The position numbers were made by a program, and so were the translations under genes. The notes under the pieces were generated by a model. It saw nothing but the letters and a program-made list of their open reading frames with translations, searched no databases and was not told the DNA's origin. From a virus (Duplodnaviria > Caudoviricetes), in IMG/VR virus record IMGVR_UViG_3300023174_000144, positions 1 through 64,000 of that record: a stretch of 64,000 nt of DNA; one strand, given 5' to 3'. This document shows positions 3,251-63,815 of this stretch, piece after piece (position 1 is the first letter of the stretch; each line of letters opens with the position of its first letter).

Positions 3251-3287
3251 TTGATTTTAGGTTATTTTAGAGTATATTAAATATAAT

Positions 3288-4650: not shown

Positions 4651-4756
4651 CTTGGAAGCCGTGACCCAAGGAAGCGTAGGTTGGTGGTTAGCCTAATAGG
4701 TATAACAGCCGAAGTTGAAGTTTCTACCTGTTGTATTTATAAAAACCACCATTTTT
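4651..4756 (+). ncRNA. candidate structured RNA
   Basis: Promoter TTGACA(4616)-N17-TAGTAT; stems TGGTGGTT/AACCACCA and ATAGGTATAACAG/CTGTTGTATTTAT, then a T-tract; no ORF. Confidence 0.35.
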
Positions 4757-11960: not shown

Positions 11961-12488
11961 ATGAATAAAACTCTGTTAAAGCAATATATAGATTCTGGCT
12001 ATTCTTCTTATAAGATAGCTAATATTTCTAATAAAGGCCAAACTACAATAAGATACTGGCTCAAAAAATATGATTTATTTACCAAAGGAAACAAAAGAGA
12101 TACTAAAATAATAAATGGAGATACTCATATTAAATGTGGAAACTGTGATAAATTTTATTCAAAAGATAATTTCTATAAAAAAACAAAAAAGTCATTTATG
12201 AGTTATTGCAAAGAATGCTTTAATGAATACGCAAAAGAGAGATGGAAAGCTAGAAAACGTAAGGCTATTGAATATAAAGGTGGCAAATGCTCTTCTTGTG
12301 GCTATAATAAATGTCCTGATGTTCTTGAATTTCATCATAGAGATCCTAAACAAAAAGAATTTGATTGGAAAAAACTTCGTCAGATGTCTTGGGATAAGGT
12401 AACAAACGAATTAGATAAGTGCGACATACTTTGTTCGAACTGCCATAGAGAGCGACATTACGAAATATTTTCTCTAAATAAAAAATAA
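11961..12488 (+). CDS. HNH endonuclease with N-terminal HTH and Zn-finger (putative homing endonuclease)
   Basis: SYKIA..TTIRYWLKKY HTH; CxxC pairs; LEFHHRDP...LCSNCHRERH HNH core. Confidence 0.85.
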   Translation: MNKTLLKQYIDSGYSSYKIANISNKGQTTIRYWLKKYDLFTKGNKRDTKIINGDTHIKCGNCDKFYSKDNFYKKTKKSFMSYCKECFNEYAKERWKARKRKAIEYKGGKCSSCGYNKCPDVLEFHHRDPKQKEFDWKKLRQMSWDKVTNELDKCDILCSNCHRERHYEIFSLNKK

Positions 12489-15820: not shown

Positions 15821-16660
15821 ATGAAAGTAAACGAAATTATCACTGAAAAATTCATCGAAGCCCTCAACAAAGGTGTCATCCCTTGGCAGAAACCTTGGAA
15901 AGTTTTTGACCTCTGCAACGGAGTTTCCAAAAAGAATTATAGGGGCATCAATCAATTTTTGCTACGGATGCTTGCTTCTGATGATTTCTTTTTTACATTT
16001 AATCAGATCAAGGAACTAGGTGGGAGAATCAAAAAGGGTGCAAAGTCTCACATGGTAGTTTATTACAAACTCCTCAAGACAGAAAGCAACAATGAAACCA
16101 AAACTTTTCCAATGATGAGATTTTATAAAGTTTTTGGCTTGAGTGATATTGAGGGCATGAAGTGGAAACAGCCTGAAGTTAAGAAGTTGGATTTTTCACC
16201 AGTAGAAGAAGCAGAAAAGTTGATCAACAAGTGTTTGATTCAGATTAAGTATGGTGGCAGTCGTGCCTGTTATTATCCGCAGGAGCATAAAATTGATCTT
16301 CCTCCAAAAGAAAATTTCACCAGCGTTGAGGAGTATTATTCCACAGCGTTCCATGAGATTGGTCACGCTATGCACAAGGCTACCAATGACGATGTAAAAA
16401 ATGGATTTGGAACTCAGAATTATAGCAAAGAAGAATTGACAGCAGAGATTTTTGCAAGCCTATGCCTTAACTTCTGCGGAATTGATTCAGAAAAATGTTT
16501 CAACAATTCTGCCAGCTATCTCTCCAACTGGCTAGGAGTATTAAAGAAAGACATGAACTTTATTATCTCAGCTTCTAGCAAAGCACAAAAAAGATTTGAC
16601 GCTTTTATTGGTAGAAAAGAAAGCGAAGAGATTCCACAAGAAGAAGCTGTAACTGCTTAA
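15821..16660 (+). CDS. ardC: ArdC-like antirestriction protein (ssDNA-binding N-domain plus zincin domain)
   Basis: IIT..FIEAL.KGVIPWQKPW...YRGIN...TFNQIKELGG.IKKGAK; YYSTAFHEIGH; YSKEELTAEI; NSASYL.NWL. Confidence 0.9.
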   Translation: MKVNEIITEKFIEALNKGVIPWQKPWKVFDLCNGVSKKNYRGINQFLLRMLASDDFFFTFNQIKELGGRIKKGAKSHMVVYYKLLKTESNNETKTFPMMRFYKVFGLSDIEGMKWKQPEVKKLDFSPVEEAEKLINKCLIQIKYGGSRACYYPQEHKIDLPPKENFTSVEEYYSTAFHEIGHAMHKATNDDVKNGFGTQNYSKEELTAEIFASLCLNFCGIDSEKCFNNSASYLSNWLGVLKKDMNFIISASSKAQKRFDAFIGRKESEEIPQEEAVTA

Positions 16661-47900: not shown

Positions 47901-50900
47901 TGATGTCTGCAGGATTTATACCTAATTTTGCTGGCTTTGATCCTATGAGTTTATTTTATATTATGCAGAGTATCGGTGGGTCTGGCAGAGCAGCAGGAGC
48001 AGAGTTGGAATTAGAAAAAAGTAAATTAGATGCAATTTTAAAAGATAGAATAGCCGCACAACAATTGCTCAAAGTAGAAGAAGCAAAAGAAATTAAAGAC
48101 CAAGCACAGATTAATTATCTTAAAAATGAACAACAACAATTATTGTCTCAAGAAAATGCACAAAGAGCCACTATGAATAGTCAGATGGGAGTTTTCGCAA
48201 GAGATAAAGGAGGAAAAATATCTGGTGGTTTTGGAGGAGCATTAGGAAGATTTGGATCAAGATATGGAGCAGGACTTGCATTAGCTGCACCATTATTAGC
48301 AGATACAGCTGCTCAATTTATTGGAGATGAAAATACTCGTGGTGGAAGAGCTCTTAAATCTGGAATATCTGGACTTGGCACAACAGCTTCTTATGCTGGA
48401 TTAGGATTTCAAGTTGGTGGAGGTTATGGCGCAGCGATTGGAGGTGGTGCTGGTTTAGCAATCGGAATTTACGATGTATTTAAAAAATTAAATGATATCA
48501 TGCCAGATGTTGCAAGAAGATTAGAAACTGCAACAGAAAAATTTAATAATATTTCAGCTGCAACTCAGACTATGTCTGTTTCATTGGAGACTTTAAGTTC
48601 AATAGAGGGCAGAGCAGATTTAAGTGCTCAAACAAGAGTTCAATTAAGAACCAAAGCAGAAGAAGACTTTGCTAAAAGTATAGCTCAATTAAACCAAGTA
48701 TTACCAGGAGCAGGTAAACAGATCACAGATCTTTATGCAAGAATAGGAGATACCGCAGAGTTGAGACAAAAAATTACACAATTACAAACAGAAGCTCAAA
48801 AAGAATCAAAAGGTCTCGCTGCATCTGCGAATTTATATACTAATAATCAAAAAATGAATGATCTTGTTGATCCAAAACTGTATCAACAAGGAGCTCTTGG
48901 AGCTGGAAAAATGTTACTCCAAAACATGCTACCTGGAAATATAGGAGTCGCTGCTAGCCTTGGTGTGGATTTGGTCAGTAAAGACTACATCAAAGGAGAA
49001 AATAAAAAAGGATTACAGGGTGCCGAAAAAATACAATATGATGAACAAATAAAAAATGGAGCATATCAATTAGATCAACTTTTTGCTAATTTTGGTAAAA
49101 ACGGACCTCTAAGTTCTGAAGAAATAGGGAAACTTCAAGCTGAATTAAAAAATGCAAAAGGACTAGATGGAATTAAAAAAGTAGTAGAAGCGTATACTGC
49201 AAATGGAACATATGCGACAGTCGTTGCAGAAAATTTAAATGCTTTAACTAAATCTGGATTTGCAGATCGTCTCATCCAAGCTTTCCGTGATCTTAAACTA
49301 GAAGCTGAAAGAATTCAAAAGGCTATAGCTGACGAGAATCAAAAACTTATCGGAGGACAAAGAAAGATTGCAGATCTCGAAAGTTATGGTAGAGCTTTTG
49401 GAGGCCAAACTCCAATTAGTGCTCAAGCTTTAGGTAGAATAGATTATAGTTCTCTTGGAGAACAGGCTAATATAGCCAGAGGTCAAGCTTTTGGAGACAG
49501 TGCTAAAAGTCAATTCTCACAATTAATGCAAGAAGTTGGATATAGCGCAGAAAATGTTCAAAAATTTAGTCAATACAATCAAGAAGCCGCAAATATACAA
49601 AAAGATCTAATCAACAAAACGATAACATTATCACAAGCCACAGAAAGATTAAAGAATTTATTTAGCGAAGTTCAATTTGAGAAAAATGCTCCATTTATGT
49701 TTTCTGGAGAAAAAGCAGCTGCACAGCAAAGCATATTAGAAGGAAAATTAAGGCAAGGAAAAATTCAAGAAGGTCTTCGACCTGCAGATTCTTTCTTTAG
49801 TAATCTTGGAGACAATGCTGCAACAACAGCAGATAAAATTAATAAATCTTTTGCTAATCTTGCATCTAATTTACAAACTGGATTTGAAGATGCATTTGGT
49901 GCATTTATTGATGGAACAAAAACTGCAGATCAAGCTTTTCAAGATATGTTATTAAGCATATCTCAGCAAATTATTAAAGAACAATTTAGTATTGGAATGA
50001 GAAGCTTGCTTGGTGGTTTAACTGGTGGCGGTGGATTTGGTGGAACATCAGATAATAGTGGCGGATTACTTGGAGGCGTATTTAATAGTATATTTGGTGG
50101 TGGCAAAGCTCAAGGAGGAATTATTCGTAAATATAGTTCTGGTGGGCATGTGCAAGGAGGAAGCGGAACAAAAGATGATGTTCCTGCAATGCTAACAGAT
50201 GGCGAATATGTTTTAAGAAAAAGTGCTGTTAATAAATATGGCAAAGGCATGTTAGATATGTTAAATAGCGGAGGGATGGTCAGAGGTTATGCTAGTGGCG
50301 GAAGTATATCTATGGGTCTTGCAAATACTTTTGATATTTTTGATCCTCAAGGAAATCTTGTGCAAAATCCTATTGGTCCATATGCTCTTGAAAGAACTAT
50401 ATCTAGTCCAGAACAATTAAAAAATATTCCAGAATACACAGGCAAATATAATATATCTAATTTATTAAGTAGTTATGGAATGACCAGAGAAGATAATCCA
50501 ATGAATGATTTGAGATCTGAAAATGCAAGAACATTTCAAGGATATCAACAAAATGTATCTAGTTTTAAAACTAGCTATAATGAAGCTATGCGTCAAGTAG
50601 AAGAGCAAAGAAAACAAGCTCAACAACAAGCAGATGAAATAAATTCTCAAGCTATGGCTCAATACAATCGAAGTCTCACAAATACTTTTATTGGTGGATT
50701 AGCTAGTGCAGGATTGAGCGCATTTGGAGCTATATCATCTTTACCCAAGGCTCCTTTTGGAACAGGTTTACAAAAATTGTTTGGAGGAGCAGCTTCTGGA
50801 GGATCTTCTGGAGGAAGCGGTGGAACATATTCTTTAAATGGATCAGGTGGTATGATTGCTGATTTCTTAGGAAAAATTGGAGGTACTGCACTTGGGGGCT

Positions 50901-53311
50901 TTGGTGGAGGTGGAGGTAGTAGTTTTCAGCCTGGAGAACAATTTAATGATCCAAGATATCAAGAACAAATATCAAAACAAATTGAAAGCGCAATACAAAA
51001 ACAAACATTCGATAGAGCTGCTATGGGAATTACCAGTCCATATCAATCGTATGGGGGCATGGGAGGATATGGCGGTTTTGATGGAAGTCAAATTCCATAT
51101 TATGGGGCTGGATCAGGAATAAATGTAGGATTAGGTGCGCCAGCTGGATTATCAACATTTACTCAAAATAAAAGCTATCTAGAGCAATATCTCACACGAC
51201 CAGCTATGCTTGTACCACCAACAGGATTAGTTACAAAACCTAATTTAATGATTTCTGGATTAGAAGGTTATGGCTATGGACAAGGAAGCACATATGGTGG
51301 ATATGCAAAAGGCGGAATTGTTAAAGGATATGCTGATGGTGGAGAAGTTAACAAATTTGTTAAAACATATTATCCATACGCAGTTCAAGCTGCTCAAAGA
51401 TTAGGCACATCTCCAGAAGCTATATTAGCTCAACTTGCATTTGAAAGTAATTATGGAAAATCTGAATTGTCTCAAAAATCATTTAACTTAGGTGGTATTC
51501 AAGCTCAAAAAGGTTATCAAGGACAAACAATATCAATGCCAGCGAATGCAGACGAAAGAGCTAGAGGAGATTTTGCTCCAAAATCATATAGAAGTTATAA
51601 TAATACAGAAGAATTTTTTAATGACTATGTGGGATTTTTATCTAAAGATAGATATTCTAAAACAATTGGAGTTGCTGATCCTGCACAAAGAGCTCAACTT
51701 TTATATGAAGCAGAATATGCTGGAGAATATCCAGGATATTCAAAACAAATTGCAAGCGTTGCAGGAAAAATAAAATCTTTTTTACCTAATAATATAGCTG
51801 GTACAAATAATTCTGTTATAGCTGGTGGTGGATTACCATCTAGTGATCTTGTTAAAAAACCTTTAAATGAAGCATTTTATGCAGGATATGATGAATACAT
51901 GAAAAACATGCTTTTACCAAAAGCAACCGCTATAGCAGAAACAAATGCTGTTACAAATGCTGTTACAAATAGTCAAGCGAAAAGTGCTAATTCTCCTGTA
52001 GGAAATTTGCGTGGAACAACACAAAATTTAGCTCAAAAGGCTTATTCTATGATATTTGATCCATTAGGTAAAGGTAAAAATGCATTACCTAGTATTTTTA
52101 GAGATGCAAATGGTATACCTACCATTGGAGCTCAATCTAATGCAAAAGCCGTCGGTCAACAATCCGTGAGTCAACAATCCGTGAGTCAACAAACCTCTAG
52201 TCAACAATATCCATGGGAAAATCCAAATCAATATCCATGGGAAAATCCAAATGCACCATCGTATGATCCATCGTTTCCAATCAAAATGTTTCTTGATAAA
52301 ATGAAGTCTGAGTCTCCTAGCCTTTATCAAAGTGTTGGAAATTTATATGAGCAAGTTGGATTAGCAAGAAAAAATCCTCAAATTCCATCTTATTTAAATA
52401 GATACTCATCATTTTATGGTTCAGGAAAAGATTATTATAACCCAGGAGGAATGTCAGGTTTTAATAATTACATGAATTACTTAGGTCTTGGATCAGGAAC
52501 TTCATTAAGTTCATTATCTTCATTCCAATTCCCAATGACTCCTACAACTTTAAGTCCATATGCATTTTCAAGTTCTCCTTTTGGTGGTGGAGCAATAAGC
52601 TATGGAGCAGGAATTGCTTCTGCGCCTTCTACATATTTTTCAGCAGGAAGCAGGTTAGGAGCTACTCCAAGCTGGGCTAGCCGAGCAACTGGAGGAATGA
52701 TTTATGGTGGAACTTCAGTAAAAGATGATGTACCAGCTATGCTTATGGGTGGAGAATATGTTGTAAGAAAAGATGCTGTAGATCGTTTTGGGCAACCATT
52801 TTTCGATAGATTAAATAGAGGACAAGTTACTGGATTTGCAGAAGGCGGACCAGTTGGAACTAATTTGCCATCTTTAACTCAAAATTTAGGGCAAAACAAT
52901 GGTCAGAAACAAGATAGTCAAACTCAAATGACAGATGCTTTGACTAAATTATTAAAATCTTTAGAGCAATTAAACCGATCAGTAGAAGACCAAACAAAAG
53001 AAATTCAAGACCAAAATCAAACAAGTGATAATGGAAATACTACATCATCATCATCAGATGGAATAACCAATAACATTAATATAAATGTTAGCGTTGGTCA
53101 AGATGGTCAAGAAGGCAAGTCTTCTACAGATTCTAATTCAGAAGATAATGGAAAAGGTGGAAATGATCAAGAAAAACTCAAAAAGACATTAGAAAAATCA
53201 AGAATGTTTGCAGAATTATTAAGACAACAAGTATTAAAAACTATAGTAGAAGAACAACGACCAGGAGGAGTATTGTATCAAGGCAGTAAAGGTCGTGATA
53301 TGGGAAGATAA
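44942..53311 (+). CDS. tape measure protein with cargo domains including a GH73/FlgJ-like glucosaminidase
   Basis: TP901-type TMP core (ELARQGL..ARLSGLD..KLAAVDSAFAVSSGDLAEALKR..TARGGAVIGNSLKTIF); GH73-like AILAQLAFESNYG...FNLGGI...YRSY at ~51350-51790. Confidence 0.92.
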   Translation: MAGNIGDLQVNLSANTSPMERDVSAALKRLESKGFNFGAGINAKAFTQPLGRITGAANEFQKSLDASNARVIAFGASAGAIYSIQKAFTSLISSTIEVQKSLTDINVILGASQKTLGQFGDSLFKIAKDSGQAFSTVATAAGELARQGLSVEQTLKRTSDALVLARLSGLDAASSVEALTASINSFNTSALDSTQIVNKLAAVDSAFAVSSGDLAEALKRVGSSAQDVGVSFDELLAIVASVNQTTARGGAVIGNSLKTIFTRVQRTEVLDQLESLGVAVRDLNGNTAPAIQVLTGLASKFDELGAAQKSQVAELVGGVFQINILKAALGDLSKQYSVYGNALKISQGATDEATRRNEELNKTLSALLNRTVANLTKVGSDIGSLSFAPAIEKVLGGINTALEAFDVKGDSIGGKIGKGIFEGIGSFVSGPGLAILIGVFLKIFGNLAKFTTEAVRTVLGLNKEAQAQAQIQERINSILSQNPQLIQNILNKQVSLLQVEKDILTVIQAQSQARAQSTAIAASLTRGLIGRGVTSEKGVITAKTKSQGFIPNFNANKEMMGAISGGYMPGQVRSMNIPNYGRVTYNDAETVKQFSGLSQPGIMPPANSDAGKAYKEKFQNKYGINPYASSGFVPNFAAGIRPEVQQRIDKAIASGKLTTLTPNKTGVLSNISPEESAALERAKKTILATRSTNNPTKITKPFDATSLGVLSLRGKSGDLSTSTSLATLPMFSDAVKADPSIGLNTVQFNGVQVRSLDALGKQKPNEFIQLLTQQLLPPLANVATQFIGSALGNQGDGVNEVLGKLKNGKTFLPPGTIGDLFETVVKIATKNPTKFLQSVEDDFRRPFDFEESGAASGQFKSRFGFESSLIKADAKLTSDAGAIRSIIKKAYNSNLDGLPFKELLNAKIPKTSSKKNKSQGFIPNFSPIDRALSTEGKMGGKGVLDFQQGVGLYVRDGKTQPNFAAVMRDHPEGIGNAVQNSKKMQSMMSAGFIPNFAGFDPMSLFYIMQSIGGSGRAAGAELELEKSKLDAILKDRIAAQQLLKVEEAKEIKDQAQINYLKNEQQQLLSQENAQRATMNSQMGVFARDKGGKISGGFGGALGRFGSRYGAGLALAAPLLADTAAQFIGDENTRGGRALKSGISGLGTTASYAGLGFQVGGGYGAAIGGGAGLAIGIYDVFKKLNDIMPDVARRLETATEKFNNISAATQTMSVSLETLSSIEGRADLSAQTRVQLRTKAEEDFAKSIAQLNQVLPGAGKQITDLYARIGDTAELRQKITQLQTEAQKESKGLAASANLYTNNQKMNDLVDPKLYQQGALGAGKMLLQNMLPGNIGVAASLGVDLVSKDYIKGENKKGLQGAEKIQYDEQIKNGAYQLDQLFANFGKNGPLSSEEIGKLQAELKNAKGLDGIKKVVEAYTANGTYATVVAENLNALTKSGFADRLIQAFRDLKLEAERIQKAIADENQKLIGGQRKIADLESYGRAFGGQTPISAQALGRIDYSSLGEQANIARGQAFGDSAKSQFSQLMQEVGYSAENVQKFSQYNQEAANIQKDLINKTITLSQATERLKNLFSEVQFEKNAPFMFSGEKAAAQQSILEGKLRQGKIQEGLRPADSFFSNLGDNAATTADKINKSFANLASNLQTGFEDAFGAFIDGTKTADQAFQDMLLSISQQIIKEQFSIGMRSLLGGLTGGGGFGGTSDNSGGLLGGVFNSIFGGGKAQGGIIRKYSSGGHVQGGSGTKDDVPAMLTDGEYVLRKSAVNKYGKGMLDMLNSGGMVRGYASGGSISMGLANTFDIFDPQGNLVQNPIGPYALERTISSPEQLKNIPEYTGKYNISNLLSSYGMTREDNPMNDLRSENARTFQGYQQNVSSFKTSYNEAMRQVEEQRKQAQQQADEINSQAMAQYNRSLTNTFIGGLASAGLSAFGAISSLPKAPFGTGLQKLFGGAASGGSSGGSGGTYSLNGSGGMIADFLGKIGGTALGGFGGGGGSSFQPGEQFNDPRYQEQISKQIESAIQKQTFDRAAMGITSPYQSYGGMGGYGGFDGSQIPYYGAGSGINVGLGAPAGLSTFTQNKSYLEQYLTRPAMLVPPTGLVTKPNLMISGLEGYGYGQGSTYGGYAKGGIVKGYADGGEVNKFVKTYYPYAVQAAQRLGTSPEAILAQLAFESNYGKSELSQKSFNLGGIQAQKGYQGQTISMPANADERARGDFAPKSYRSYNNTEEFFNDYVGFLSKDRYSKTIGVADPAQRAQLLYEAEYAGEYPGYSKQIASVAGKIKSFLPNNIAGTNNSVIAGGGLPSSDLVKKPLNEAFYAGYDEYMKNMLLPKATAIAETNAVTNAVTNSQAKSANSPVGNLRGTTQNLAQKAYSMIFDPLGKGKNALPSIFRDANGIPTIGAQSNAKAVGQQSVSQQSVSQQTSSQQYPWENPNQYPWENPNAPSYDPSFPIKMFLDKMKSESPSLYQSVGNLYEQVGLARKNPQIPSYLNRYSSFYGSGKDYYNPGGMSGFNNYMNYLGLGSGTSLSSLSSFQFPMTPTTLSPYAFSSSPFGGGAISYGAGIASAPSTYFSAGSRLGATPSWASRATGGMIYGGTSVKDDVPAMLMGGEYVVRKDAVDRFGQPFFDRLNRGQVTGFAEGGPVGTNLPSLTQNLGQNNGQKQDSQTQMTDALTKLLKSLEQLNRSVEDQTKEIQDQNQTSDNGNTTSSSSDGITNNININVSVGQDGQEGKSSTDSNSEDNGKGGNDQEKLKKTLEKSRMFAELLRQQVLKTIVEEQRPGGVLYQGSKGRDMGR

Positions 53312-56300
53312 TTAAGGCTGATTTACAAATACAAAAGTTTGTTCTACTTTATCTGCACTACGATCTATTGACACTATTCTTACAGCAAATGTTTGTCCAT
53401 TATTAATCCAAGAAGCATATTTAGTAATTAAATTACCATACATTTCTTGTGAAAGTTTAGAGTATTTGAAATCTGGCAAAGAAAGCATGATTGGATAACT
53501 TTTTACAACATCATCAAATTGATAAGTATCTATAAGATCTGAACCAGACCAATCACTAGATGTTATATTTACATCATTTGTTTGTTTAATATATATTGCT
53601 ACTTTGTATAAAGATACATCATGCTCTGGTGAAAAATTAATCATTGTATATAATGTGCTATTTTGTTTTGTTGGTTTTTTATAATAAATAACTTGATTAC
53701 TTGCTGAATAATTTAAAGCTAAAAATCTCCAATTTAAAGATCCAATCACAAAAGTATTAGCTCCTACTATTTTACCATATGGTAAATCTATATTAAAAGA
53801 TGGATCTTCATTATATGAGCTTAATATATAGAATTGTTTATATGGTACTCTTTGAAGAGATTTTAAATTATCTTCAAGGCAACAGCCATCAACGCAGTCA
53901 CTTGAATTTGTTAAAGATACATAATCTTTTGGGCAACTTCTTAAAAACATAAATTCATTACTTGAAGCATCATTAGCAAAAAGATAATATTTTCCAAAAT
54001 AAGGTACATCACCCTCATCTTCAAATATTTTTAACTTGGTAGGATAAATAACAAAAGATATAATCTTTTTTGAATCTACTATATTTGTTAAATTAACTTC
54101 TTTTCCATTCAATATGGGATCATTATCAATACCACAAGATGAAACAAATTTTGCTACAAAGTAATGATAATTAATTCCATTTATTTGTTTAATGCCCTTT
54201 TCTAGAACTGTATCTGAACCAGATATTCCTTGCACAATAAAGTCTTCTGCATCTGGTAAGTCTAGTATAAATTCTATTATAGAATAAGCATCTTCTTTTT
54301 GTGTTCCAGCACCCAAAACTTTAACAGAATAAATATTTTTTGCAGAAAACAATTTTAAATCATCACATACATATTTAAAATCTCGAGTTTCTGGAGAGTC
54401 TACATCTCCAATGTTACCTGGATCCCAAACTCCAAGATAAGCAGGATTACTATTAATTCCACTAGAAGGCACATCTTCTGGACAGGTTACATTTTGAGAA
54501 CTTAAAGAGCTGTATTTATAACTATCTAAACATCTATATGTAGTATAATAAGAGTAATCATTAGGAAATGTATTATTGATTAATTTTGCTTGAGATCTTG
54601 GGAAATAATTAAAAAATTGAGGTCCAGAAGCAAATCCATCTTTAACAAAATCTAACATTCTTGCTCCACGATTATTCAAATAATCATTACAATAGTTTTC
54701 ATCAGGCCAAGCTATATTTTTGTAACTTTCTGGGGTAAAGAAGTACACAAGACCTTGATAACTTGCTGCAATTGTAGATGTATAAAGAGGATTTTGTTTA
54801 ATACATTTTGTTAATGTTATATATTTATCTATTAGATTATTAGAATCAATAAATGCCCTTACTTGATCATTATCAATCGCAGCATTAAATTGAGTCAAGA
54901 ATGATCTAAATACAGAAGTTTGAAGTGCATTCATATAATATATTTTCATAGAGAATATAGTATCTTGAGGCAATAAACTATCTGGTGATAATTTTACAGT
55001 TAATTTATAAATTGATTGAGTTTGATCATCTATTCTTTCTACAGGATAGTTTTTAAGAGAGATGTTATCATCTATATTAAATAAATCATCTATAAATATA
55101 AAATTATCTTCTCGGACTTTGTCTTGATCATTATTGATGTTTTTATTAAATTTCTGTGGAAACATAATGATAGATTCTAATCCTATGTTTTCTGGTAAAA
55201 GCTCTTTAAATGTAAATGAAATATTTTCTGGAGTCTCTCTTTTGTAATTTTTAAATAATTTCAATACATTTGAGCGATCAATATTTACATGACTAATATT
55301 TAATAATTTATATCCTTTGTAATTTGTATATCTAGCTTCTTTAGTGCTTTCATTATACACATTTCCACCAGCAGAAGAGTTTCCACTGAAATCAATAGCT
55401 TCTATAACGCTATAATAATCGTTATAATATCCCACATTACTTACTTGTATAAATGATTTTGGAGAGTATCCAGATCCTGTTAAATTTTGAATTTGATTAT
55501 TAATATAGCCAGAGATTGTTTGACTATTTGGATTAAAAAATGTTTGTCCTAAAGTTGTAATTCCTTCTACATAAAATGTATTATTTTGAATATATGAATT
55601 TAAATTATCTTTTGCATTAAATATTAAAAATCTTGTATTTTCTCCTTTTGTTAGTTGTTGTCCACCAGTTGTATACATTGGTCCAACATCTCCAACGCTA
55701 TAAGAGTTTAAATTAGTATTTGATGTTGAAGATGATGAATGATCATAATCTAATCTTCTAATATCATTTGAGAAGTTTTTTAATATAGTCTGATTTGTTG
55801 ATATTGTTTCGTCTTTTGGTTTTGGTATAATTCGATCTAAAAATGTTATTTTTTTATCTACAAGATAATTAGCAAAATCAATATTTGTTGTATTTGGTAC
55901 GTAATACTTAAATTCATCTGTAGTAGGAGCAGAGAAATCGAATTCCCATCCAACCACTAAATCACTTGAAGGATTGACAAAGCTTCCACCTGATATATCA
56001 GGAATCATTGAATTATATTGTTTTGAATAAAAATTAATGTTCTTAAAATTTATTTCTTTTATAGGATCTAGAATATTTACTATCCCAGAAAAAGCTTGTC
56101 CAGAAGATTCAAATCCTAATTGACTTTTAGAAAAGACTTGAAAGAAATAATTACCCGTGTTTTTTGGTATAAAAAAAGAAGATACATAACCAGAAGAATA
56201 TATTGATTCTGCTATAAGATTTCTTCGGTCATTAGAATTTGGTAAATTACTTAAAGTATCTGAATCAGAAGAATATATTTTATATCCATTTTGATCTTGA

Positions 56301-56404
56301 TTTTCTTCTGGCGGAGGGAATCTAAAAACAAAACCTTCAGCAAAATTTGTTATTTTAATTTTTTTAAATTCTACTATTGGTTGATCTGGTAATTCAGCAC
56401 TCAT
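53312..56404 (-). CDS. tail tip / central fibre protein (gpJ C-terminal-like, FN3-type repeats)
   Basis: Follows the gpJ core gene; FN3-like FRFPPP..YKIY and FSP..DVSLYKVAIY. Confidence 0.55.
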   Translation of the reverse strand: MSAELPDQPIVEFKKIKITNFAEGFVFRFPPPEENQDQNGYKIYSSDSDTLSNLPNSNDRRNLIAESIYSSGYVSSFFIPKNTGNYFFQVFSKSQLGFESSGQAFSGIVNILDPIKEINFKNINFYSKQYNSMIPDISGGSFVNPSSDLVVGWEFDFSAPTTDEFKYYVPNTTNIDFANYLVDKKITFLDRIIPKPKDETISTNQTILKNFSNDIRRLDYDHSSSSTSNTNLNSYSVGDVGPMYTTGGQQLTKGENTRFLIFNAKDNLNSYIQNNTFYVEGITTLGQTFFNPNSQTISGYINNQIQNLTGSGYSPKSFIQVSNVGYYNDYYSVIEAIDFSGNSSAGGNVYNESTKEARYTNYKGYKLLNISHVNIDRSNVLKLFKNYKRETPENISFTFKELLPENIGLESIIMFPQKFNKNINNDQDKVREDNFIFIDDLFNIDDNISLKNYPVERIDDQTQSIYKLTVKLSPDSLLPQDTIFSMKIYYMNALQTSVFRSFLTQFNAAIDNDQVRAFIDSNNLIDKYITLTKCIKQNPLYTSTIAASYQGLVYFFTPESYKNIAWPDENYCNDYLNNRGARMLDFVKDGFASGPQFFNYFPRSQAKLINNTFPNDYSYYTTYRCLDSYKYSSLSSQNVTCPEDVPSSGINSNPAYLGVWDPGNIGDVDSPETRDFKYVCDDLKLFSAKNIYSVKVLGAGTQKEDAYSIIEFILDLPDAEDFIVQGISGSDTVLEKGIKQINGINYHYFVAKFVSSCGIDNDPILNGKEVNLTNIVDSKKIISFVIYPTKLKIFEDEGDVPYFGKYYLFANDASSNEFMFLRSCPKDYVSLTNSSDCVDGCCLEDNLKSLQRVPYKQFYILSSYNEDPSFNIDLPYGKIVGANTFVIGSLNWRFLALNYSASNQVIYYKKPTKQNSTLYTMINFSPEHDVSLYKVAIYIKQTNDVNITSSDWSGSDLIDTYQFDDVVKSYPIMLSLPDFKYSKLSQEMYGNLITKYASWINNGQTFAVRIVSIDRSADKVEQTFVFVNQP

Positions 56405-56406
56405 AA

Positions 56407-59400
56407 TTAAATTTTATCTGTTTCCATAAACTTAGTTTCATCATATTCTAAAGCTGAAATTTTATATTTATTTTCTTCTGTTTCTTCTATATCCAAAATT
56501 CTAAATTTCTGAGTTTGATCAATATATGGCTCTAATTGTGCTCCTAAATATGGCTTTTCTCTTTTTTCTAAATTTTTTTCACTAAAAATACTAGGACTTT
56601 TTTCGTATTTGTATGTTTCTGGATCTAACTCAATTGTCCATACTGTATTTTGTAATAATGTATGTTCTACATTATCTAAACTTCCAAGAAAATTAATTTT
56701 TGCATATCCACTATAATTAATTCCAGTTTCTTCAGTAACAAATGTTTGAAATGATAATCCACTAACTCCAGTAGTAGTATTAAAATTAATAGTTTGTACT
56801 TGTTTTCTTCTGATTGTATTGCTATCTGGGGTTTTAACAGGTATATTTTCGCCTTTTAAATTTATATTAATGCTATCATTTTGTAAAGAAGAATTTTCTG
56901 AAATTTGATCCATAAAATCATTTGAATTGTCTGTGCCAATTTCTAGATTTCCAGCTGGCGTTAAAACATTAAATTTACAATCTCCAATTGCTGGTAAAAA
57001 TCCAGTCATATCATTGTATTTTATATCAATAATTGCAGAATCTGTTCTTAATTGATATGTTCTTCCGCCAAGAATTTTATTTTGTCTATTTTGATCTTGT
57101 ATCATAACAATATCTCCAGGTTTTAAATATAAAGCTGGAAGACTTGTTTCAAAAGATACAAGTTCTGACTCTGAATTTTCTGATAATAAAGTCCATTTTC
57201 CATATCTCTCAGCTTGACTTTCACTTGTGCATCCAAAAGCGCTCATTTCCATTTCTCTTATGCCATTTCTTAATATACCTTCTCTATTTTCTACATACTT
57301 AATAGCTGGTTTATAAAAATTGTCTTTATCATTATATCTAACTAAGGCTACATTTCTTCTTACTCTTTTGCTTGTGTTGCTATATGTAAATTCTCCTTCT
57401 TTGACATTTGAATTATTAAAAATATAAATTGGATCTTTAGGTTTATCTTGAGAAGCAAAAATAAGTCCAGCCGTATAATACACAATACCTCTAAAAATAC
57501 TTGCCATATCATTTATTATTTTATAAGCATCTTCTCTAGTAGAAAAAAGAAGATTGCATGTAAACCTTGGCTCTACATCTGCTATTTTTGTTTTATCAAC
57601 ATCATTTGGAGTATTTGATCTTTTACTCTTAACTAATTCATCACAATATCTTGATATTTCATATAGAGTCCATTTATCAACATATTTTGAATCAAAATAC
57701 TTACCTAATCCAAATCTATTATTTGTAATCATATCATAAAAACACCAAGCTGGATTATCTGTCCAAGCTAAAGCGAATTCTCCATTCCAACTACCTTGAT
57801 AAGTTCTAGTATATGGATTATAATTAGATGGAACTTTTACTTTTAATAGTCTTGTATCATAAGATCTCTGAGGTATAGTACTGAAGAATCTGGCATCAAA
57901 ATTAGTTAAAATTGCAGCTGTATTTGGATATATTAATTTCTCATCGTATATTTCTGTAACAGAATCAACATTTGCTTTATTAGCTATATTTATATCAACT
58001 GATTCAAAATGTAATGGGGTAATTTCTATTTCCCATCCTATTGTCTCTGGTAAGGAAACTTTATCTAAACCAAGCCATTCGAAACTTTCTATATATGCTC
58101 CTTGATTTAATTTTCCAACTATCTTTAAAACCCACGTATCTGATCCAACATTATAAGAATCTGCACTAATTTGTGATGCTGGAACTGGAGTTCCATCCCA
58201 TTTAATATAAGAAATTTTTTGTGGTTCAGTGATGCTAGAATCAATTCTTTTAAGTCTCAAATAATAAAGCTGTGCATATCTATCTACTCTTCCAGTTGTT
58301 GTATTCTTTGCAGCATCTGCAGCACTTTCCCATATAGTTAAATCAACAATTTGTTTAAATAATACAGAAGCTTTAATATTTAATCTTAAACCAGATAAAT
58401 TTTTAGTTAAAAGATTTATTGATTTTTTATATCTTATAATCTCTCCTGTATCTTGTATTTTTCTGGCTCCTAATAATTTCATTCCAGAAGTTTTTGTTTT
58501 TGAAATACTCTTAGGAATTCTAACTAATAAATTAGATTGATCATAATCTTTTATAATTTTAACATTTTTTGCATTATTTTCTTGAGTTGTTTGTTTTATA
58601 TTAAGTATATCTGTTACTTTAGATCCTGGCGCTAATATCTTGGTATAAACTTCTTCTTTTAAATCTATATGTTTGTGCTGTCGTAAATTAGAATGTAAAG
58701 ATGGCTTTCCTCCATTTGTATAACCTAATCTAATAAAATCAAAATTAAGAGATGCATTCTGCGGATATGTATTATCTGCCAAAGGCGTTTCATTCCAATA
58801 TATAGAACGAATTAACGGATCGGGTCCAGGATATTTTTCTATTCTTACTCCATTTTCGTATCCGAGCATACCTTCTTTATTTCCTGGAAGTGGTATTATT
58901 TCGTAATCTGTTATTCCTTCTATTGGTCCTTCGCTGATAATATCTAATATAGATATATTTGTTAAAGTTGTTATACCAACATCTTCAGATTTTTTAGCTT
59001 CATTTATATATACAGTAGAGTAATTAGTCAATGTACGGTAGTCTTCTACTGTTTGGCCAGGCTTACATGTTGCTTGATTTGGTATGACATTTGCAAGATA
59101 ATTAAATTGATCCTTTGCTCCAAAAAAAGAGATTGCAGTAGTTCGTGTTTTATTTGTTTTAGTTGGATAAGTGCATGTATAAATTTGATTGTTTGTTGCT
59201 ATTTTACTTTTTTCATCTTCGGTGTATAAATATAATGTAAATGCTATTTGATTAACAAATTGAGGTTCTAAAAATGAACAATCTGCAGCTGGTACAATTC
59301 TACAAGTATAAACTCCTGCTTTTGTGGGTATACCATTAGGATATTTTAATTTGTTTGGATTGACTTTTAATTTTTTAGCGTTGCTTTCACCAATTCCTGC

Positions 59401-61746
59401 AATATCTTTTTCTAATTTGACTTCTCCAATTAATGCTGGTGGAATAGTTATATCGTTATAAGAGCTTGGAGCAGAATAATAAGCTTGATATTCATTTAGT
59501 TCTTGGAAGTCGTCTATTGCCTTTTGGCTTGAGAAAAATGCCTTAATAGTTTTAGGAACTCTTTTTGCTTCTAATGGCTTACTTTCAGTAAAAAGAACAT
59601 CAGGAATCAAATAGTCATCATTTTTGTTTTCAATTTTTTGATATGTTTCTGTTGGCAAATTAGAATAATAAGTTCCTACAGTTGTAGTTTTTCCAGCAAT
59701 TGCCTTGTTTGGGTTCTTATTTGGTACATCATTTGTTGTATAAGATACTGATTGCGTTATGAATTTTCTATTTATATCTCTAATAGTCAAGCTCATTAGT
59801 GCGCTTCTTAATTTAGAAACTGGACCATCTTTTTTGCCTCCACCTTTTGGAGCGGTAGGTGGTGTATAACAAACTTTTCCATTGCTATCTATTCTAGTAT
59901 CTTCTCCAGCATCTATTACCATAAGAACATCAACATTAATTGATGTAGATGTATCAATATTCTTACCTTTTTTGGTGCTTCCAACAAATTTATATATTGT
60001 TAATCCTGTAACGGGATCTATTCTAGGTTTATCTTTTTTTAATCCAGTTCTACTATCTAAAACTGAATCTGTTTCTACTACCCAATTTCCAGCGCTTGAA
60101 GTAGGATCATCTATATAAACAAAAAATTTTCTACTATCAGGATTTGTAATATTTGAAAAAGTTATAGGTTTAGAACTATTTCTTGGTATAGGCTTTAAGA
60201 TAGCATTAGCAGTAGCATCATTAAATAATCCGCCTAATATTCCTAATCCACTCTTTCCTAAACTTTGAGCAATCGAACCATATCCTTTACCAGTTGCAGA
60301 AATTATATCTGACATTTTTGCAAATCTTACTATTGCATCTGAAGTAGGAGATAATGTAAGAGTTATTGTTCCATTTTGAACTGTAAATGCTGGATTAGAA
60401 TATATATTTATGCTAGATGGAAAACTAGCAGAAGGTTTGATATTTTTTGTTTCATCTGGAGTAATATTTAAAGTTATATTAACTCCTGTAGATACTGCTT
60501 TATTATTAGCAACGTAACATGTGATTGTTTCATTAAATGCATGTTTTGGAGTTCCAGATATAACACCTGTGGTTCTGTTTAGTGATAATCCTTCTGGTAA
60601 ATAATCAACAGCAAAACATAAATTACTTGCATTATTGTGTTTGATTGTTCCTGAAGATTTTTGATTAACAACGAAATTAAAAGTTTGTGAAGGTGTTATG
60701 GTTGGGGTAGAGCCGCTAATTGTTCCTGTAACAATTTGTAAATTAAAATTAATACTTTGGCCTGAAGCAGCATCACTATTAAATAATGTTATTGGTATTG
60801 AAGTGATAGTTATTAAATTTGATGGACTTTTTATAGTACCAGATATTTTTTTTGTTTCTTTATTAAAACTTAATCCTAATATACTTAATCTAGCTAATCC
60901 TTCATTATCTATACTAGCGTCCCATGTTCCATTTGATATATTTGTATTGATTGTATAATCTATAGTTGTGCCTGCTTGTGCTCTTATAATAGGAGCAGAT
61001 GTACTTCTTATAGGATTATTTCCCAAAGAATCTTTACATTTAATTGTTAAAGTTTTAAAAGAATCAATTGTTATTGGTTTTTTATTTTTGTCTACTCCAG
61101 CAGTTAAGATGCTAGCATTTAATTGAACTGTATAATAACCAACTTTGGAGACTGGTTTATCTGAAGTCCATAAAGTATCTGTAGCTATAGTTTTTGATGG
61201 ATCAGTACTTGCAGTTTTAAATTGTAAATAAGTTTCAAAGCTTTCATTTCTTGATATATAATAATATGTTACTGCCTGAGCGGAATTTATTGTATATGAA
61301 AATAACTGTCCTTTAGTTGCATCTGCAAATCCAGAAGTTGTAATTTTTGCTGGAACTAAAGAAGTTTCACCAGCGGCTCCTCTTAATATCGTTCCATCTG
61401 CAAAATCAAATACAAACCAAAATCCTTTATTTCTATCAACTCCTTGTATTGAACCTCGGGATATACCATCCTGAACTTTATTAGTATTATTACTTGGATT
61501 CAATGCTGGATTATAAGCTTGGACTAAATCAAGAAGATCTGCGTCTACATCTAATCCTGTGCTTACATCAGTAATTTCATCTTTCTTTGGGTCGCCAAGA
61601 TCATTAAAAAAAGGAATTACTTCATCATTAAAATAAGTATTTTTATCATTATCAAAGTTATGTCCATTTGCGCCTCTATATGCAATACCTTCAATGTATT
61701 TGTTTGGATCACAATCTTTACACCTTTTAGCGTTATCTGCAGCCAT
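56407..61746 (-). CDS. tail tip host-specificity protein J (TipJ) with N-terminal Ig-like extension
   Basis: ISEGPIEG; YPNTA...DAR.F..IPQRSY..R..KVKVPSNYNP; WTDNPAWCFYD...RFGLG; EPRFTCN; LPEGLSLN..TGVISGTP (He_PIG-like). Confidence 0.92.
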   Translation of the reverse strand: MAADNAKRCKDCDPNKYIEGIAYRGANGHNFDNDKNTYFNDEVIPFFNDLGDPKKDEITDVSTGLDVDADLLDLVQAYNPALNPSNNTNKVQDGISRGSIQGVDRNKGFWFVFDFADGTILRGAAGETSLVPAKITTSGFADATKGQLFSYTINSAQAVTYYYISRNESFETYLQFKTASTDPSKTIATDTLWTSDKPVSKVGYYTVQLNASILTAGVDKNKKPITIDSFKTLTIKCKDSLGNNPIRSTSAPIIRAQAGTTIDYTINTNISNGTWDASIDNEGLARLSILGLSFNKETKKISGTIKSPSNLITITSIPITLFNSDAASGQSINFNLQIVTGTISGSTPTITPSQTFNFVVNQKSSGTIKHNNASNLCFAVDYLPEGLSLNRTTGVISGTPKHAFNETITCYVANNKAVSTGVNITLNITPDETKNIKPSASFPSSINIYSNPAFTVQNGTITLTLSPTSDAIVRFAKMSDIISATGKGYGSIAQSLGKSGLGILGGLFNDATANAILKPIPRNSSKPITFSNITNPDSRKFFVYIDDPTSSAGNWVVETDSVLDSRTGLKKDKPRIDPVTGLTIYKFVGSTKKGKNIDTSTSINVDVLMVIDAGEDTRIDSNGKVCYTPPTAPKGGGKKDGPVSKLRSALMSLTIRDINRKFITQSVSYTTNDVPNKNPNKAIAGKTTTVGTYYSNLPTETYQKIENKNDDYLIPDVLFTESKPLEAKRVPKTIKAFFSSQKAIDDFQELNEYQAYYSAPSSYNDITIPPALIGEVKLEKDIAGIGESNAKKLKVNPNKLKYPNGIPTKAGVYTCRIVPAADCSFLEPQFVNQIAFTLYLYTEDEKSKIATNNQIYTCTYPTKTNKTRTTAISFFGAKDQFNYLANVIPNQATCKPGQTVEDYRTLTNYSTVYINEAKKSEDVGITTLTNISILDIISEGPIEGITDYEIIPLPGNKEGMLGYENGVRIEKYPGPDPLIRSIYWNETPLADNTYPQNASLNFDFIRLGYTNGGKPSLHSNLRQHKHIDLKEEVYTKILAPGSKVTDILNIKQTTQENNAKNVKIIKDYDQSNLLVRIPKSISKTKTSGMKLLGARKIQDTGEIIRYKKSINLLTKNLSGLRLNIKASVLFKQIVDLTIWESAADAAKNTTTGRVDRYAQLYYLRLKRIDSSITEPQKISYIKWDGTPVPASQISADSYNVGSDTWVLKIVGKLNQGAYIESFEWLGLDKVSLPETIGWEIEITPLHFESVDINIANKANVDSVTEIYDEKLIYPNTAAILTNFDARFFSTIPQRSYDTRLLKVKVPSNYNPYTRTYQGSWNGEFALAWTDNPAWCFYDMITNNRFGLGKYFDSKYVDKWTLYEISRYCDELVKSKRSNTPNDVDKTKIADVEPRFTCNLLFSTREDAYKIINDMASIFRGIVYYTAGLIFASQDKPKDPIYIFNNSNVKEGEFTYSNTSKRVRRNVALVRYNDKDNFYKPAIKYVENREGILRNGIREMEMSAFGCTSESQAERYGKWTLLSENSESELVSFETSLPALYLKPGDIVMIQDQNRQNKILGGRTYQLRTDSAIIDIKYNDMTGFLPAIGDCKFNVLTPAGNLEIGTDNSNDFMDQISENSSLQNDSININLKGENIPVKTPDSNTIRRKQVQTINFNTTTGVSGLSFQTFVTEETGINYSGYAKINFLGSLDNVEHTLLQNTVWTIELDPETYKYEKSPSIFSEKNLEKREKPYLGAQLEPYIDQTQKFRILDIEETEENKYKISALEYDETKFMETDKI

Positions 61747-61747
61747 A

Positions 61748-63064
61748 TTAAGATGTTAATGAAGTTGTTGACATGTCTTCATTATTTATATTTGTTATCT
61801 TTACTGGATATCCTCTTGTGTTAAAATAATAACTTTTAGATGGATAGCTGAGATCTCCTCCTGGGTCTCTTTTTGGTTTACCAACCTGTTTGCCTTCTGT
61901 TTCAAGATGAGATTCTCTTGATTGAATTCTATAATATTGATCGTAAGATGCAAAAACTTGATGACTTCCTATAATAAGTCTTCCATATCCTACTGGAACA
62001 GGTCCACCTTCTCCAACCGTGTTAACTGGTCCATTAAATAAATAAGAGGGTTCTCCTCCACCACCATTTGGAGAGCCACTAAAATCTGCAGAAGGATTGG
62101 CTATAGCGGCTGGACTTACCATTGGAGGTGGTTTAGATAACATTAAACTAACTCCAACAGCAACTAGTCCTAAAATTGCTGGCATCATCATTTGTAGTGT
62201 TAATCCAGCAAATACTTGAGTTCCTGGAATAATAGCTAATATAACAGCTAAAAAAATAGCTATAATACCTTTCATCATTCCTCCTCCACCTTTACCACCT
62301 TTGCCACCTCCTCCATTATGAACTAAAATTTCTTCAGCAATATATGTATGATGATCTTTTACATGCATATTATAAACATCTTCATAACCATCTTCTTCTA
62401 TTCTTTCTATTGGTAAAACATCTCCACTTTGATGTATTAATATATCTCCTATTTTAAAATTTGACAATGGTGCAAATCTATTGTGTTCATTTAAAAACCA
62501 ATGATTTTCTGTTGCACGTATAGTTTTGCCTCCCCACAAGGTAATTTTTAATATTTTATTTTTTTCATGGAAAAAAGTTTCTTCGACTACAGATGTTTTA
62601 ATATTTTTATCTTTATCAAAACAAAGAATCTCATCTCCTGCTTTAAAATTTTCTATATTTTTATTTCCATTTGGAGTAGATATTTTAATTCCAGCTGGAA
62701 AACATCCTCCTCCACCTCCACCGCCACCACCTGCGCCTTCAATAACTGGAATTATATCAATTGAAGAAAGCTTGTCGTTTTCAAACGGCATGTTCAATTC
62801 TGAATTTCTTAATGAATCAATATGTTTTTTTGTTAAATCTTTATTTTTTTGAGGTAAACTTTCTATGTTTGGTACCCATACAGATCTATTATTAATAAAT
62901 ATCTCATATTTTGCTTCATTTTGTGCTTGTTGAATAAGGTATTTTATCAATTTTCCAGTATTAGCTTCTATAGCTCTTATAGCTTCTGAAACACTGTTCA
63001 CTTTTAAATTCCATTCGGAACCAATTTGATCACCTAAATCACCATGTAATGTAACCTTTACCAT
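61748..63064 (-). CDS. tail assembly protein I (Ubl) with inserted Hint domain
   Basis: VTLHGDLG..SVSEAIRAI..IDIIPVIEGAGGG; SYLFNGPVNTVGEGGPVPVGYGRLIIGS. Confidence 0.9.
   Translation of the reverse strand: MVKVTLHGDLGDQIGSEWNLKVNSVSEAIRAIEANTGKLIKYLIQQAQNEAKYEIFINNRSVWVPNIESLPQKNKDLTKKHIDSLRNSELNMPFENDKLSSIDIIPVIEGAGGGGGGGGGCFPAGIKISTPNGNKNIENFKAGDEILCFDKDKNIKTSVVEETFFHEKNKILKITLWGGKTIRATENHWFLNEHNRFAPLSNFKIGDILIHQSGDVLPIERIEEDGYEDVYNMHVKDHHTYIAEEILVHNGGGGKGGKGGGGMMKGIIAIFLAVILAIIPGTQVFAGLTLQMMMPAILGLVAVGVSLMLSKPPPMVSPAAIANPSADFSGSPNGGGGEPSYLFNGPVNTVGEGGPVPVGYGRLIIGSHQVFASYDQYYRIQSRESHLETEGKQVGKPKRDPGGDLSYPSKSYYFNTRGYPVKITNINNEDMSTTSLTS
62315..62704 (-). other. intein-like Hint domain (130 aa, no homing endonuclease, Gly at +1)
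   Basis: CFPAG N-terminal block, ATENHWF (TxxH) block B, VYNMHV block F, ILVHN end; flanked by Gly runs. Confidence 0.88.
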
Positions 63065-63065
63065 A

Positions 63066-63815
63066 TTAAATCATGCTCCTATGCCTGACGATATATTTCG
63101 TATGTTTTCGATAAAAATCGTCATATATATTTACACAAGAAAAAGAATTATATGGATGGTGTAAAATCGTATTATTTCCTATATTCATTGCGCAGTGAGT
63201 AGCATACACTTCAGAAACGTTAGGAAATAGCATAAAAAAGGCATCGTGCTTTTTAAAAGGGGTATTTTTATCTAGCTTAATAAAATTTTGTTTTTCAAAA
63301 AAATCTTCATATATAGAATTTATATCTTTTAAATTTTTTGGATATGCTATTTCTTTTGGGCAATATATTGAAACATTTAATTCTTTTTTGTAATAGTCTA
63401 TAGCCAAAGAGAAGCAGTCTGAAACTTCAGTGATGTATGGTCTGCCAATGTATTTATTTTTGTAAGTATTTGGATAATACATATTGAATATGTCATTTTT
63501 TATATTATAGAGTATAAATGTTATATTATGTTTGTTACTATTTAACATATCTATTTCGCTAAATTCATTATTGTCGTTATTATGAGAATGAAAACAAGCA
63601 ACAATTTTACCTAATTGACTACATTTTAAATACTCTAAAGAAGATATTGAGAAGAAGTTTTTTTTATCAAATGCTATATTTTTACAAGAATATATATTAA
63701 ATTTTAATTTTTTTTCATCAAAATATATTAGACCACAAGATTCTATATCTTTTCTATTATTAGATAGATCTTTAATTTCATTTTTTAATGAACTATTAAA
63801 ATCTATATTAATCAT
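63066..63815 (-). CDS. tail assembly protein K (JAB/MPN plus NlpC/P60)
   Basis: ESCGLI; FHSH-N7-SEID; PY...DCFSLAIDYY; HCAM..ILHH. Confidence 0.9.
   Translation of the reverse strand: MINIDFNSSLKNEIKDLSNNRKDIESCGLIYFDEKKLKFNIYSCKNIAFDKKNFFSISSLEYLKCSQLGKIVACFHSHNNDNNEFSEIDMLNSNKHNITFILYNIKNDIFNMYYPNTYKNKYIGRPYITEVSDCFSLAIDYYKKELNVSIYCPKEIAYPKNLKDINSIYEDFFEKQNFIKLDKNTPFKKHDAFFMLFPNVSEVYATHCAMNIGNNTILHHPYNSFSCVNIYDDFYRKHTKYIVRHRSMI

Follow-up and report, generated by a model that had tools for sequence, protein, structure and literature searches.

What is a Hint domain doing in the middle of a phage tail assembly protein, directly behind a ubiquitin-like (Ubl) domain and with Gly in place of a +1 nucleophile? 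The question is raised by a stretch of 64,000 nucleotides, positions 1 to 64,000 of IMG/VR record IMGVR_UViG_3300023174_000144 (hereafter the window), which has a GC content of 33%, looks like a portion of an uncultured tailed phage, and carries such an insert in a lambda-type gpI gene. Judged by its sequence and modelled fold, the insert is best classified as an A-type bacterial intein-like (BIL) domain and not as a canonical intein. It is probably a catalytically competent, recombination-mobile cassette that would remove itself by cutting both junctions, perhaps with some ligation through the amine of Gly251. The open reading frame (ORF) and its parts are located as follows in the window.

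61748-63064, minus strand: gpI-like tail assembly protein ORF, 438 aa, between gpK and gpJ (phrog_32, phrog_4554)
62732-63064, minus strand: N-terminal beta-grasp (Ubl-like) domain, residues 1-111 (AlphaFold2, AF2, and Foldseek)
62705-62731, minus strand: nine-Gly run, residues 112-120, with Gly120 at -1 (read from the sequence)
62315-62704, minus strand: A-type BIL / PT-HINT domain, residues 121-250 (Pfam PF07591, AF2, Foldseek, phmmer)
62279-62314, minus strand: C-flank GGGGKGGKGGGG, residues 251-262, with +1 = Gly251 (Gly251 then GGGKGGKGGGG; read from the sequence)
62129-62278, minus strand: hydrophobic helical segment, residues 263-312 (AF2 helices 266-278 and 294-308, at low predicted local distance difference test score, pLDDT)
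61751-62128, minus strand: C-terminal gpI domain, residues 313-438, with a conserved GEGGPxPxGYG motif (alignment A1; phrog_4554)

This order of Ubl, Gly run, Hint and Gly/Lys linker had already been described in a sequence-only reading of the same DNA and the ORF reads so, except that residues 108-111 (IEGA) are followed in the DNA by nine Gly codons and not by eight. The family, fold, catalytic residues, distribution and selection of the inserted domain were all open to direct observation in this study. The domain spans 130 aa, begins with Cys121, contains a block B of Thr185-Glu-Asn-His188, ends in His249-Asn250 and is followed by Gly251 at +1. On gpI, Pfam PT-HINT (PF07591) scored 48.6 bits against a cut-off of 27.7. 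The AF2 pLDDT across residues 121-250 lies at 86-95, with one ten-residue block at 80, and Foldseek ranked the BIL domain of Clostridium thermocellum (2lwy) first in the PDB, at 34% identity, a template modelling (TM) score on the target of 0.86 and a root-mean-square deviation of 1.7. BIL2 of the Tetrahymena BUBL1 locus came next, then the gp41-1 and DnaB mini-inteins; 65 PDB matches were obtained at E <= 0.001, and the rows listed were inteins, BIL or Hedgehog domains. A phmmer search of the PDB gave 2lwy at 1e-14 and gp41-1 at 7.7e-9. With PT-HINT above its cut-off and 2lwy the best match by both sequence and structure, the BIL type proposed in the sequence-only reading is upheld.

The features by which A-type BIL domains are recognized are all present, namely the HINT fold, Cys1, Thr-x-x-His, His-Asn and the lack of a +1 nucleophile, and the site is a poly-Gly/Lys linker of varying length among relatives, with no conserved enzyme site. 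Those of a canonical intein are lacking: the +1 residue is Gly251 and not Cys, Ser or Thr, and Pfam Intein_splicing remained below threshold on the Hint (31.7 bits vs 35.8). The setting typical of PT-HINT domains was not found either, since phrog_4554 'tail protein' follows where a C-terminal toxin module would stand just downstream. The domain aligns end to end with mini-inteins and BIL domains of 128-138 aa, which at a length of 130 aa leaves no space for an endonuclease, as had been supposed. The Hint is also the only part of gpI that matched cultured phages (tblastn, about 30%), the matches being Vibrio phage helicase inteins and Ruminococcus phage hypothetical proteins; the gpI flanks gave no match among 50,697 cultured phage records (tblastn, E <= 1e-5).

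The host protein was recognized by other means. The PHROG family phrog_32 'tail assembly protein' matches gpI residues 1-115 at 1.2e-25, and phrog_4554 matches residues 286-371. An AF2 model of residues 1-118, built from 30 sequences, has a mean pLDDT of 85.5, and its top PDB rows in Foldseek are all beta-grasp proteins of the MoaD/Urm1/SAMP/CysO kind, as weak matches (E 0.013-0.2, TM on target 0.57-0.70). Gly110 of this domain is kept in at least 90% of the alignment rows. The Pfam family of lambda tail protein I gave no match to the whole protein (E up to 0.01) or to either half (E up to 10), and the part downstream of the Hint had no Pfam match at E up to 10. PHROGs, fold, architecture and gene order are thus the grounds on which the protein is assigned to gpI. 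For the complete gpI, the AF2 model is poor overall (mean pLDDT 63.5). By position, helices 263-312 would correspond to helices H1/H2 of lambda gpI (PMC11101478), and the C-terminal domain is presumably equivalent to the lambda plug domain.

The absence of a +1 nucleophile, claimed at first for the window, was found to be general. Cys1, Thr-x-Asn-His, His-Asn and the +1 Gly are intact in every gpI copy, 65 having been examined (36 proteins and 29 IMG/VR loci); the catalytic residues are kept in 21 of 21 Hint-bearing rows of alignment A1, and the +1 Gly is invariant in both Hint subtypes described below and among sequences as little as 50% identical. The wider family was approached by a phmmer search with the Hint alone against 1.84 billion cluster representatives, which returned 7169 proteins at E <= 0.001. 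Junctions were surveyed in the best 149 of these 7169 (50%-identity cluster representatives, the gpI representative being left out), with 284 domain matches. The first residue is Cys in 248 of the 249 domains aligned to the start, and His-Asn closes 240 of the 249 whose alignment reaches the last residue. Immediately behind the aligned domain stands Lys in 141, Gly in 54 and Ala in 16 (n = 249); Cys, Ser or Thr occurs there in only 19. Such near-absence of +1 Cys, Ser or Thr among the nearest relatives indicates that the gpI Hint comes from a lineage long devoid of a +1 nucleophile and does not represent a recent loss from an intein.

Among gpI proteins themselves the domain is widespread and discontinuous. 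A word-indexed search gave 199 relatives, and among the 120 listed 28 had Hint families, of which 27 were full-length proteins (434-455 aa, 50-95% identity) and one a fragment. In IMG/VR, a full-length Hint-bearing gpI was present at 29 of 79 loci, and a contig end truncates one more. Two Hint subtypes (130 aa and 144 aa long) were distinguished with full support and lie about 1.7 changes per site apart on the Hint tree. The close relatives that have no Hint (P0029-P0033 and L031) show an uninterrupted Gly/Lys linker at the same place.

A tree of the exteins, that is, of gpI outside the Hint, comprised 47 rows, of which 36 were Hint-bearing, 6 Hint-less and 5 outgroup. The survey of gpI homologues with and without the domain, which the sequence-only reading had suggested, thus found both kinds, and neither forms a clade. 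The four hosts of subtype 2 are scattered to three places. Approximately unbiased (AU) tests rejected monophyly of the subtype-2 hosts (p 1.2e-5), of the Hint-less rows (p 1.6e-4) and of the Hint-bearing rows (p 6e-4), p-values that are somewhat weakened by the groups having been chosen after a quick tree had been seen, with labels that derive from features of the sequences instead of the tree. Several groups within subtype 1 recur in both the Hint tree and the extein tree, among them that of the window with P0001, L001, P0002 and P0003, and this agreement points to mostly vertical inheritance with occasional gain, loss or swap. Clean splicing to an ordinary gpI together with a patchy distribution, like that of a selfish mini-intein, had been named beforehand as evidence against the proposed use of a Ubl-Gly thioester. 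Part of that picture was found here, since on the extein tree both the occurrence of the Hint and its subtype are patchy.

A possible route for such changes lies in the DNA that flanks the domain.

62705-62744, unstranded: direct repeat copy 2 flanking the Hint, paired with 62279-62318

This repeat of Gly codons is exact over 13 nt and 70% identical over 40 nt, and its spacing of 426 nt (142 codons) is in frame. A recombination event between the two copies would excise the Hint without a frameshift, and the linker that remained would resemble that of the Hint-less sisters. A recent acquisition of the Hint from a compositionally different source was considered and rejected, its GC (0.26) and its GC at third codon positions (0.085) being similar to those of the neighbouring tail genes.

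The ratio of nonsynonymous to synonymous change (dN/dS) was computed by the Nei-Gojobori method for 190 pairs from 20 distinct coding sequences. The Hint had a median of 0.14, against 0.18 for the Ubl, 0.16 for the C-domain and 0.25 for the helices, with dS near 1 and many values near saturation. The Hint is under strong purifying selection. It is extremely unlikely that the domain is a canonical mini-intein whose +1 nucleophile was recently lost and which is heading for decay or loss. The sub-threshold Intein_splicing match, the good structural fit of the gp41-1 and DnaB mini-inteins and the patchy distribution could each be read in that way. However, the Gly at +1 is common to all copies and both subtypes, the whole family neighbourhood is without +1 nucleophiles, no decayed gpI copy was found while dN/dS remains low, and the domain sits in a linker of low complexity instead of a conserved active-site motif.

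The same Hint family also occurs in the next tail-tip protein, gpJ. Judging by sequence comparison, the closest single-Hint relatives of the gpI domain stand at the very N-terminus of gpJ proteins; these proteins lack a Ubl. A Pfam scan of host proteins, covering the first 49 of the best 149, revealed eight gpJ-type proteins (FNIII-A_GpJ and/or Phage-tail_3) in which the Hint starts within the first 35 residues; by motif count, 36 of the 149 belong to this class, with Gly at +1 in 32 of 38 domains. P0126, P0136, P0141, P0149, P0162 and P0163 are among them, and the hosts include prophages and metagenome-assembled genomes (MAGs) annotated as Oxalobacter, Castellaniella, Betaproteobacteria and others. 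DNA for the class was taken from prokaryote genome contigs found with alignment A3, which gave ten prophage or MAG loci (L084-L093). An in-frame stop lies just upstream of the gpJ Hint in all ten, and in nine the Hint is preceded by a leader of 13-19 residues that ends in a Gly run (the parse of L088 is unclear). The two residues after His-Asn are Gly-Gly in seven of the ten loci and Ala-Gly in two, and lysine is often not close to the junction. After the Hint the normal Gly/Lys-rich N-terminus of gpJ resumes (e.g., L086, 3471-7538, plus strand), and at least five of the ten loci have a complete, Hint-less gpI just upstream. In several of them the motif behind the Hint is already present in the leader, as in L085, where a hydrophobic pair and Ala-Gly-Ala-Gly-Gly-Gly-Gly stand on both sides; to judge from the residues, this looks like a duplicated target.

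Two further gpJ cases differ from this pattern. P0132, a 1758-aa homologue of the window gpJ (55% identity over the C-terminal 900 residues, 28% in the N-terminal extension), has a Hint that occupies residues 725-856, is flanked by Thr (-1) and Met (+1) and falls where the N-terminal extension gives way to canonical gpJ sequence; the window gpJ has none. P0136, used as a query in IMG/VR, gave three loci with a Hint only in L082, in degenerate form (ending Ser-Asn). In L082 a small ORF (2984-3355, minus strand), HNH endonuclease-like by eye, lies between gpI and gpJ (3546-4712, plus strand), and gpI is apparently split over two frames.

The chemistry of the gpI Hint, its products and any benefit to the phage are argued here from what is known of A-type BIL domains. 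These have a C-terminal His-Asn, no +1 nucleophile and no branched intermediate, and mainly cleave (PMC4031507, PMC7664689, PMC7765530); a ligation of the flanks has been proposed in which Asn cyclisation frees an amine and this amine then attacks the thioester at the N-terminal junction (PMC4031507, PMC7664689). By this analogy, Cys121 of gpI would form a thioester with Gly120 after translation, and cyclisation of Asn250 would cut the Asn250-Gly251 bond. As the +1 residue is Gly, no branched intermediate should be possible, and three pieces would therefore be expected as main products, namely Ubl-Gly9, the free Hint and a fragment GGGGK...-helices-plug. In a minor fraction, attack of the freed Gly251 alpha-amine on the thioester may rejoin the flanks, by the route proposed for A-type BILs.

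The cassette would further be moved, swapped and lost through recombination between the flanking Gly-codon repeats, and the same family would have colonised the Gly-rich gpJ N-terminus in many prophages, where C-terminal cleavage alone would be needed. It would persist at sites that tolerate being cut. In lambda virions a trimeric plug in the tip lumen is formed by gpI residues 101 or 135 to 223; the N-terminal domain of gpI is unseen and gpK is not present (PMC10721106, PMC11101478). Cleavage of gpI should be harmless here, as nothing but the C-terminal part of gpI is seen in the tail-tip lumen of lambda.

The genes on either side of gpI are those of gpK and gpJ.

63066-63815, minus strand: gpK, JAB + NlpC/P60 tail assembly protein, 249 aa (phrog_30 at 8.5e-49; HSH-x7-SEID)
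56407-61746, minus strand: gpJ-like central tail fibre / hub protein, 1779 aa, no Hint (Phage-tail_3 3.6e-19; phrog_31 4.9e-122)

The tail assembly protein I of lambda was described by Iyer et al. (2006) as a ThiS/MoaD-like Ubl, a Gly-rich linker and a C-terminal domain, and the JAB domain of gpK was predicted to cut it at the last Ubl glycine (PMC1779556). The gpK of the window scores marginally below the Pfam cut-offs for both its domains (Prok-JAB 24.5 vs 25, NlpC/P60 22.8 vs 23). Its JAB motif, His-x-His-x7-Ser-x-x-Asp, which had been called intact from the window, was present there and at all 29 Hint-bearing loci, and the idea that the Hint is a replacement of the JAB peptidase was rejected on that count.

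The Hint might nevertheless be an adaptive maturation switch, a protease-independent device that frees the Gly-headed plug of gpI, or elsewhere gpJ, during tail-tip assembly, beside or ahead of the gpK JAB. This is unlikely, yet it is the alternative with most in its favour. The dN/dS of the Hint is as low as or below that of the flanking domains, all 65 gpI copies are catalytically intact, and the domain is kept although the 13-nt in-frame repeat permits easy deletion. The two tail-tip sites would both be left with a Gly-Gly N-terminus, and a cut of gpI after the Ubl is what Iyer et al. predicted (PMC1779556). On the other hand, sister phages inside the clade have the same linker and no Hint, the undecayed JAB motif (30 of 30 loci) indicates that nothing was replaced, and purifying selection would be expected on any self-excising insert in an essential gene, helpful or not.

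The sequence-only reading had gone further and proposed that a Ubl-Gly thioester is released or conjugated without E1/E2. In this reading a lysine or N-terminal amine would resolve the Gly120 thioester, with Lys255/Lys258 or another tail or host protein as acceptor, as in BUBL/BIL2. The order of Ubl, Gly run and BIL-type Hint does resemble BUBL, BIL2 is the second-best structural match, and a precedent exists in the reported ATP-independent conjugation of ubl4 to lysines by BIL2 (PMC8616854). Lysines stand at +5 and +8 within the flexible linker, and lysine is the commonest +1 residue of the wider family. Against this, no observation links the Hint specifically to the Ubl, the nearest single-Hint relatives have a 13-19-residue leader and no upstream Ubl, identity to BIL2 is only 22%, gpJ-type copies often have no lysine near the junction, Hint-less sisters manage without the domain, which is patchy on the extein tree, and there is no known acceptor. 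Such transfer is accordingly judged very unlikely. A connection with host Ubl-conjugating defence had likewise been suggested. Bil targets the central tail fibre, and its authors speculated that deubiquitinase domains of phage tail assembly proteins might counter Bil (preprint); the possible link of the gpI Hint to such defence has that targeting as its sole basis.

It is also conceivable, at rather low probability, that a BIL sub-family has specialised on the Gly-rich junctions of the gpI linker and the gpJ N-terminus, where its thioester and Asn-cyclisation chemistry is put to use, and not just tolerated, as a protease-independent maturation step and, in gpI, possibly for E1/E2-free transfer of Ubl-Gly to an amine of a tail or host protein, in the manner of ciliate BUBL/BIL2.

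The reading of the domain as a self-removing, recombination-mobile BIL cassette is preferred over these, and several points weigh against it. For the gpI Hint, cleavage, ligation and the ratio of the two are deduced by analogy with A-type BILs, and the AU p-values and the near-saturated dS values carry the reservations given with them above. A table of lambda virion mass-spectrometry data, in which gpI is represented by one peptide (9.9% coverage), is uninformative on the Ubl part or on cleavage. C-terminal cleavage alone does not explain why Cys1 is kept in gpJ copies with an N-extein of 13-19 residues, and a mere cassette does not explain long survival of the Hint beside an easy route of deletion; these two points leave room for a useful role. 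Strong purifying selection together with retention throughout a clade whose dS is near 1, despite easy in-frame deletion, could likewise mean that the domain is useful and not a passenger.

Other hosts in the wider family include a group of 12 among the 49 scanned proteins (P0121-P0125, P0129, P0142, P0145, P0155, P0160, P0166 and P0167) with a signal-peptide-like N-terminus ending in Ala-Arg-Gly-Gly-Gly-Gly, from two to five Hints in tandem with nothing but Lys-Gly(-Gly) between them, a Gly-rich stretch and then one or two Tim44-like domains. Every junction in these proteins has Lys at +1. P0151 (810 aa) has four ubiquitin repeats interleaved with several Hints and resembles the ciliate BUBL polyubiquitin-like loci.

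In the window, the minus-strand lambda-type tail-tip block (gpK, gpI, gpJ) converges head-on with the plus-strand tape measure gene.

44942-53311, plus strand: tape measure protein, 2789 aa

The tape measure protein includes an endolysin-like segment at residues 2137-2274 (phrog_3513), and tail fibre proteins and an endolysin are also encoded in the window. In the window gpJ, the canonical start is preceded by an extension of about 890 aa with a Cys-rich N-terminus and a He_PIG Ig domain. A 1030-aa ORF (53312-56404, minus strand) had no PHROG match. Far from the Hint, the early region encodes, all on the plus strand, a MazG-like pyrophosphatase (phrog_229, 1648-2016), an HNH endonuclease (phrog_2255, 11961-12488) and an anti-restriction protein (phrog_7245, 15821-16660). 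A tblastn search of the window with the Hint found the gpI copy only, and no second Hint.

The Hint family and the gpI host are both already known; what appears new is their combination and the occurrence of nucleophile-less Hints in Gly-rich tail-tip ends. The literature searched, whose coverage left out most subscription journals, contained no account of gpI or gpJ carrying a Hint or BIL domain. The BIL reviews consulted present these domains in variable bacterial surface and toxin proteins, with no phage tail-tip host, so that a tail-tip lineage, recurring each time within Gly-rich segments and next to a +1 Gly or Lys, would add a new habitat. Recombination between Gly-codon repeats would offer a simple model for the spread of nucleophile-less Hints. 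The location also places a self-cleavage chemistry at the exact spot of the long-predicted gpK JAB cut in gpI. Furthermore, the gpI copy is a compact natural Ubl-BIL fusion, which makes conjugation of the BUBL style directly testable in a bacterial system.

Of the systems already known, the A-type BIL domain represented by 2LWY is similar to the gpI Hint in its HINT fold, Cys1, Thr-x-x-His, His-Asn, length of about 130 aa and lack of both a +1 nucleophile and an endonuclease. Its hosts are variable secreted bacterial proteins, whereas the gpI Hint, with its predicted activity, sits in a phage tail-tip assembly protein with poly-Gly on both sides. PT-HINT domains of polymorphic toxins are proposed to release a C-terminal module by self-cleavage. 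The gpI Hint passes the cut-off of that family, but the helices and plug of gpI follow it in place of a toxin domain. Class 1 mini-inteins (gp41-1, Npu/Ssp DnaB) share the fold and blocks A, B and G with the gpI Hint; they have a +1 Cys, Ser or Thr and a conserved functional site, whereas the gpI Hint has neither and lies in a low-complexity linker.

In the ciliate BUBL (BIL2, PDB 6Y75/6TMM) a Ubl is directly upstream of the intein-like domain, as in gpI, where the Ubl ends at Ala111. The ciliate protein carries a ubiquitin array and gpI a single MoaD/ThiS-type Ubl, the identity is 22%, and conjugation by gpI would be hypothetical. The lambda K-I-J genes (TAPK, TAPI, TAPJ) have the same order as those of the window, with a Ubl head, Gly-rich linker, helices and C-terminal domain in gpI and JAB and NlpC/P60 in gpK. 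Compared with lambda, the window gpJ is extended by about 890 aa at its N-terminus, and the window gpI has no match to the Pfam gpI family, an extra helical insert in its Ubl and a much longer linker, with the Hint inside it.

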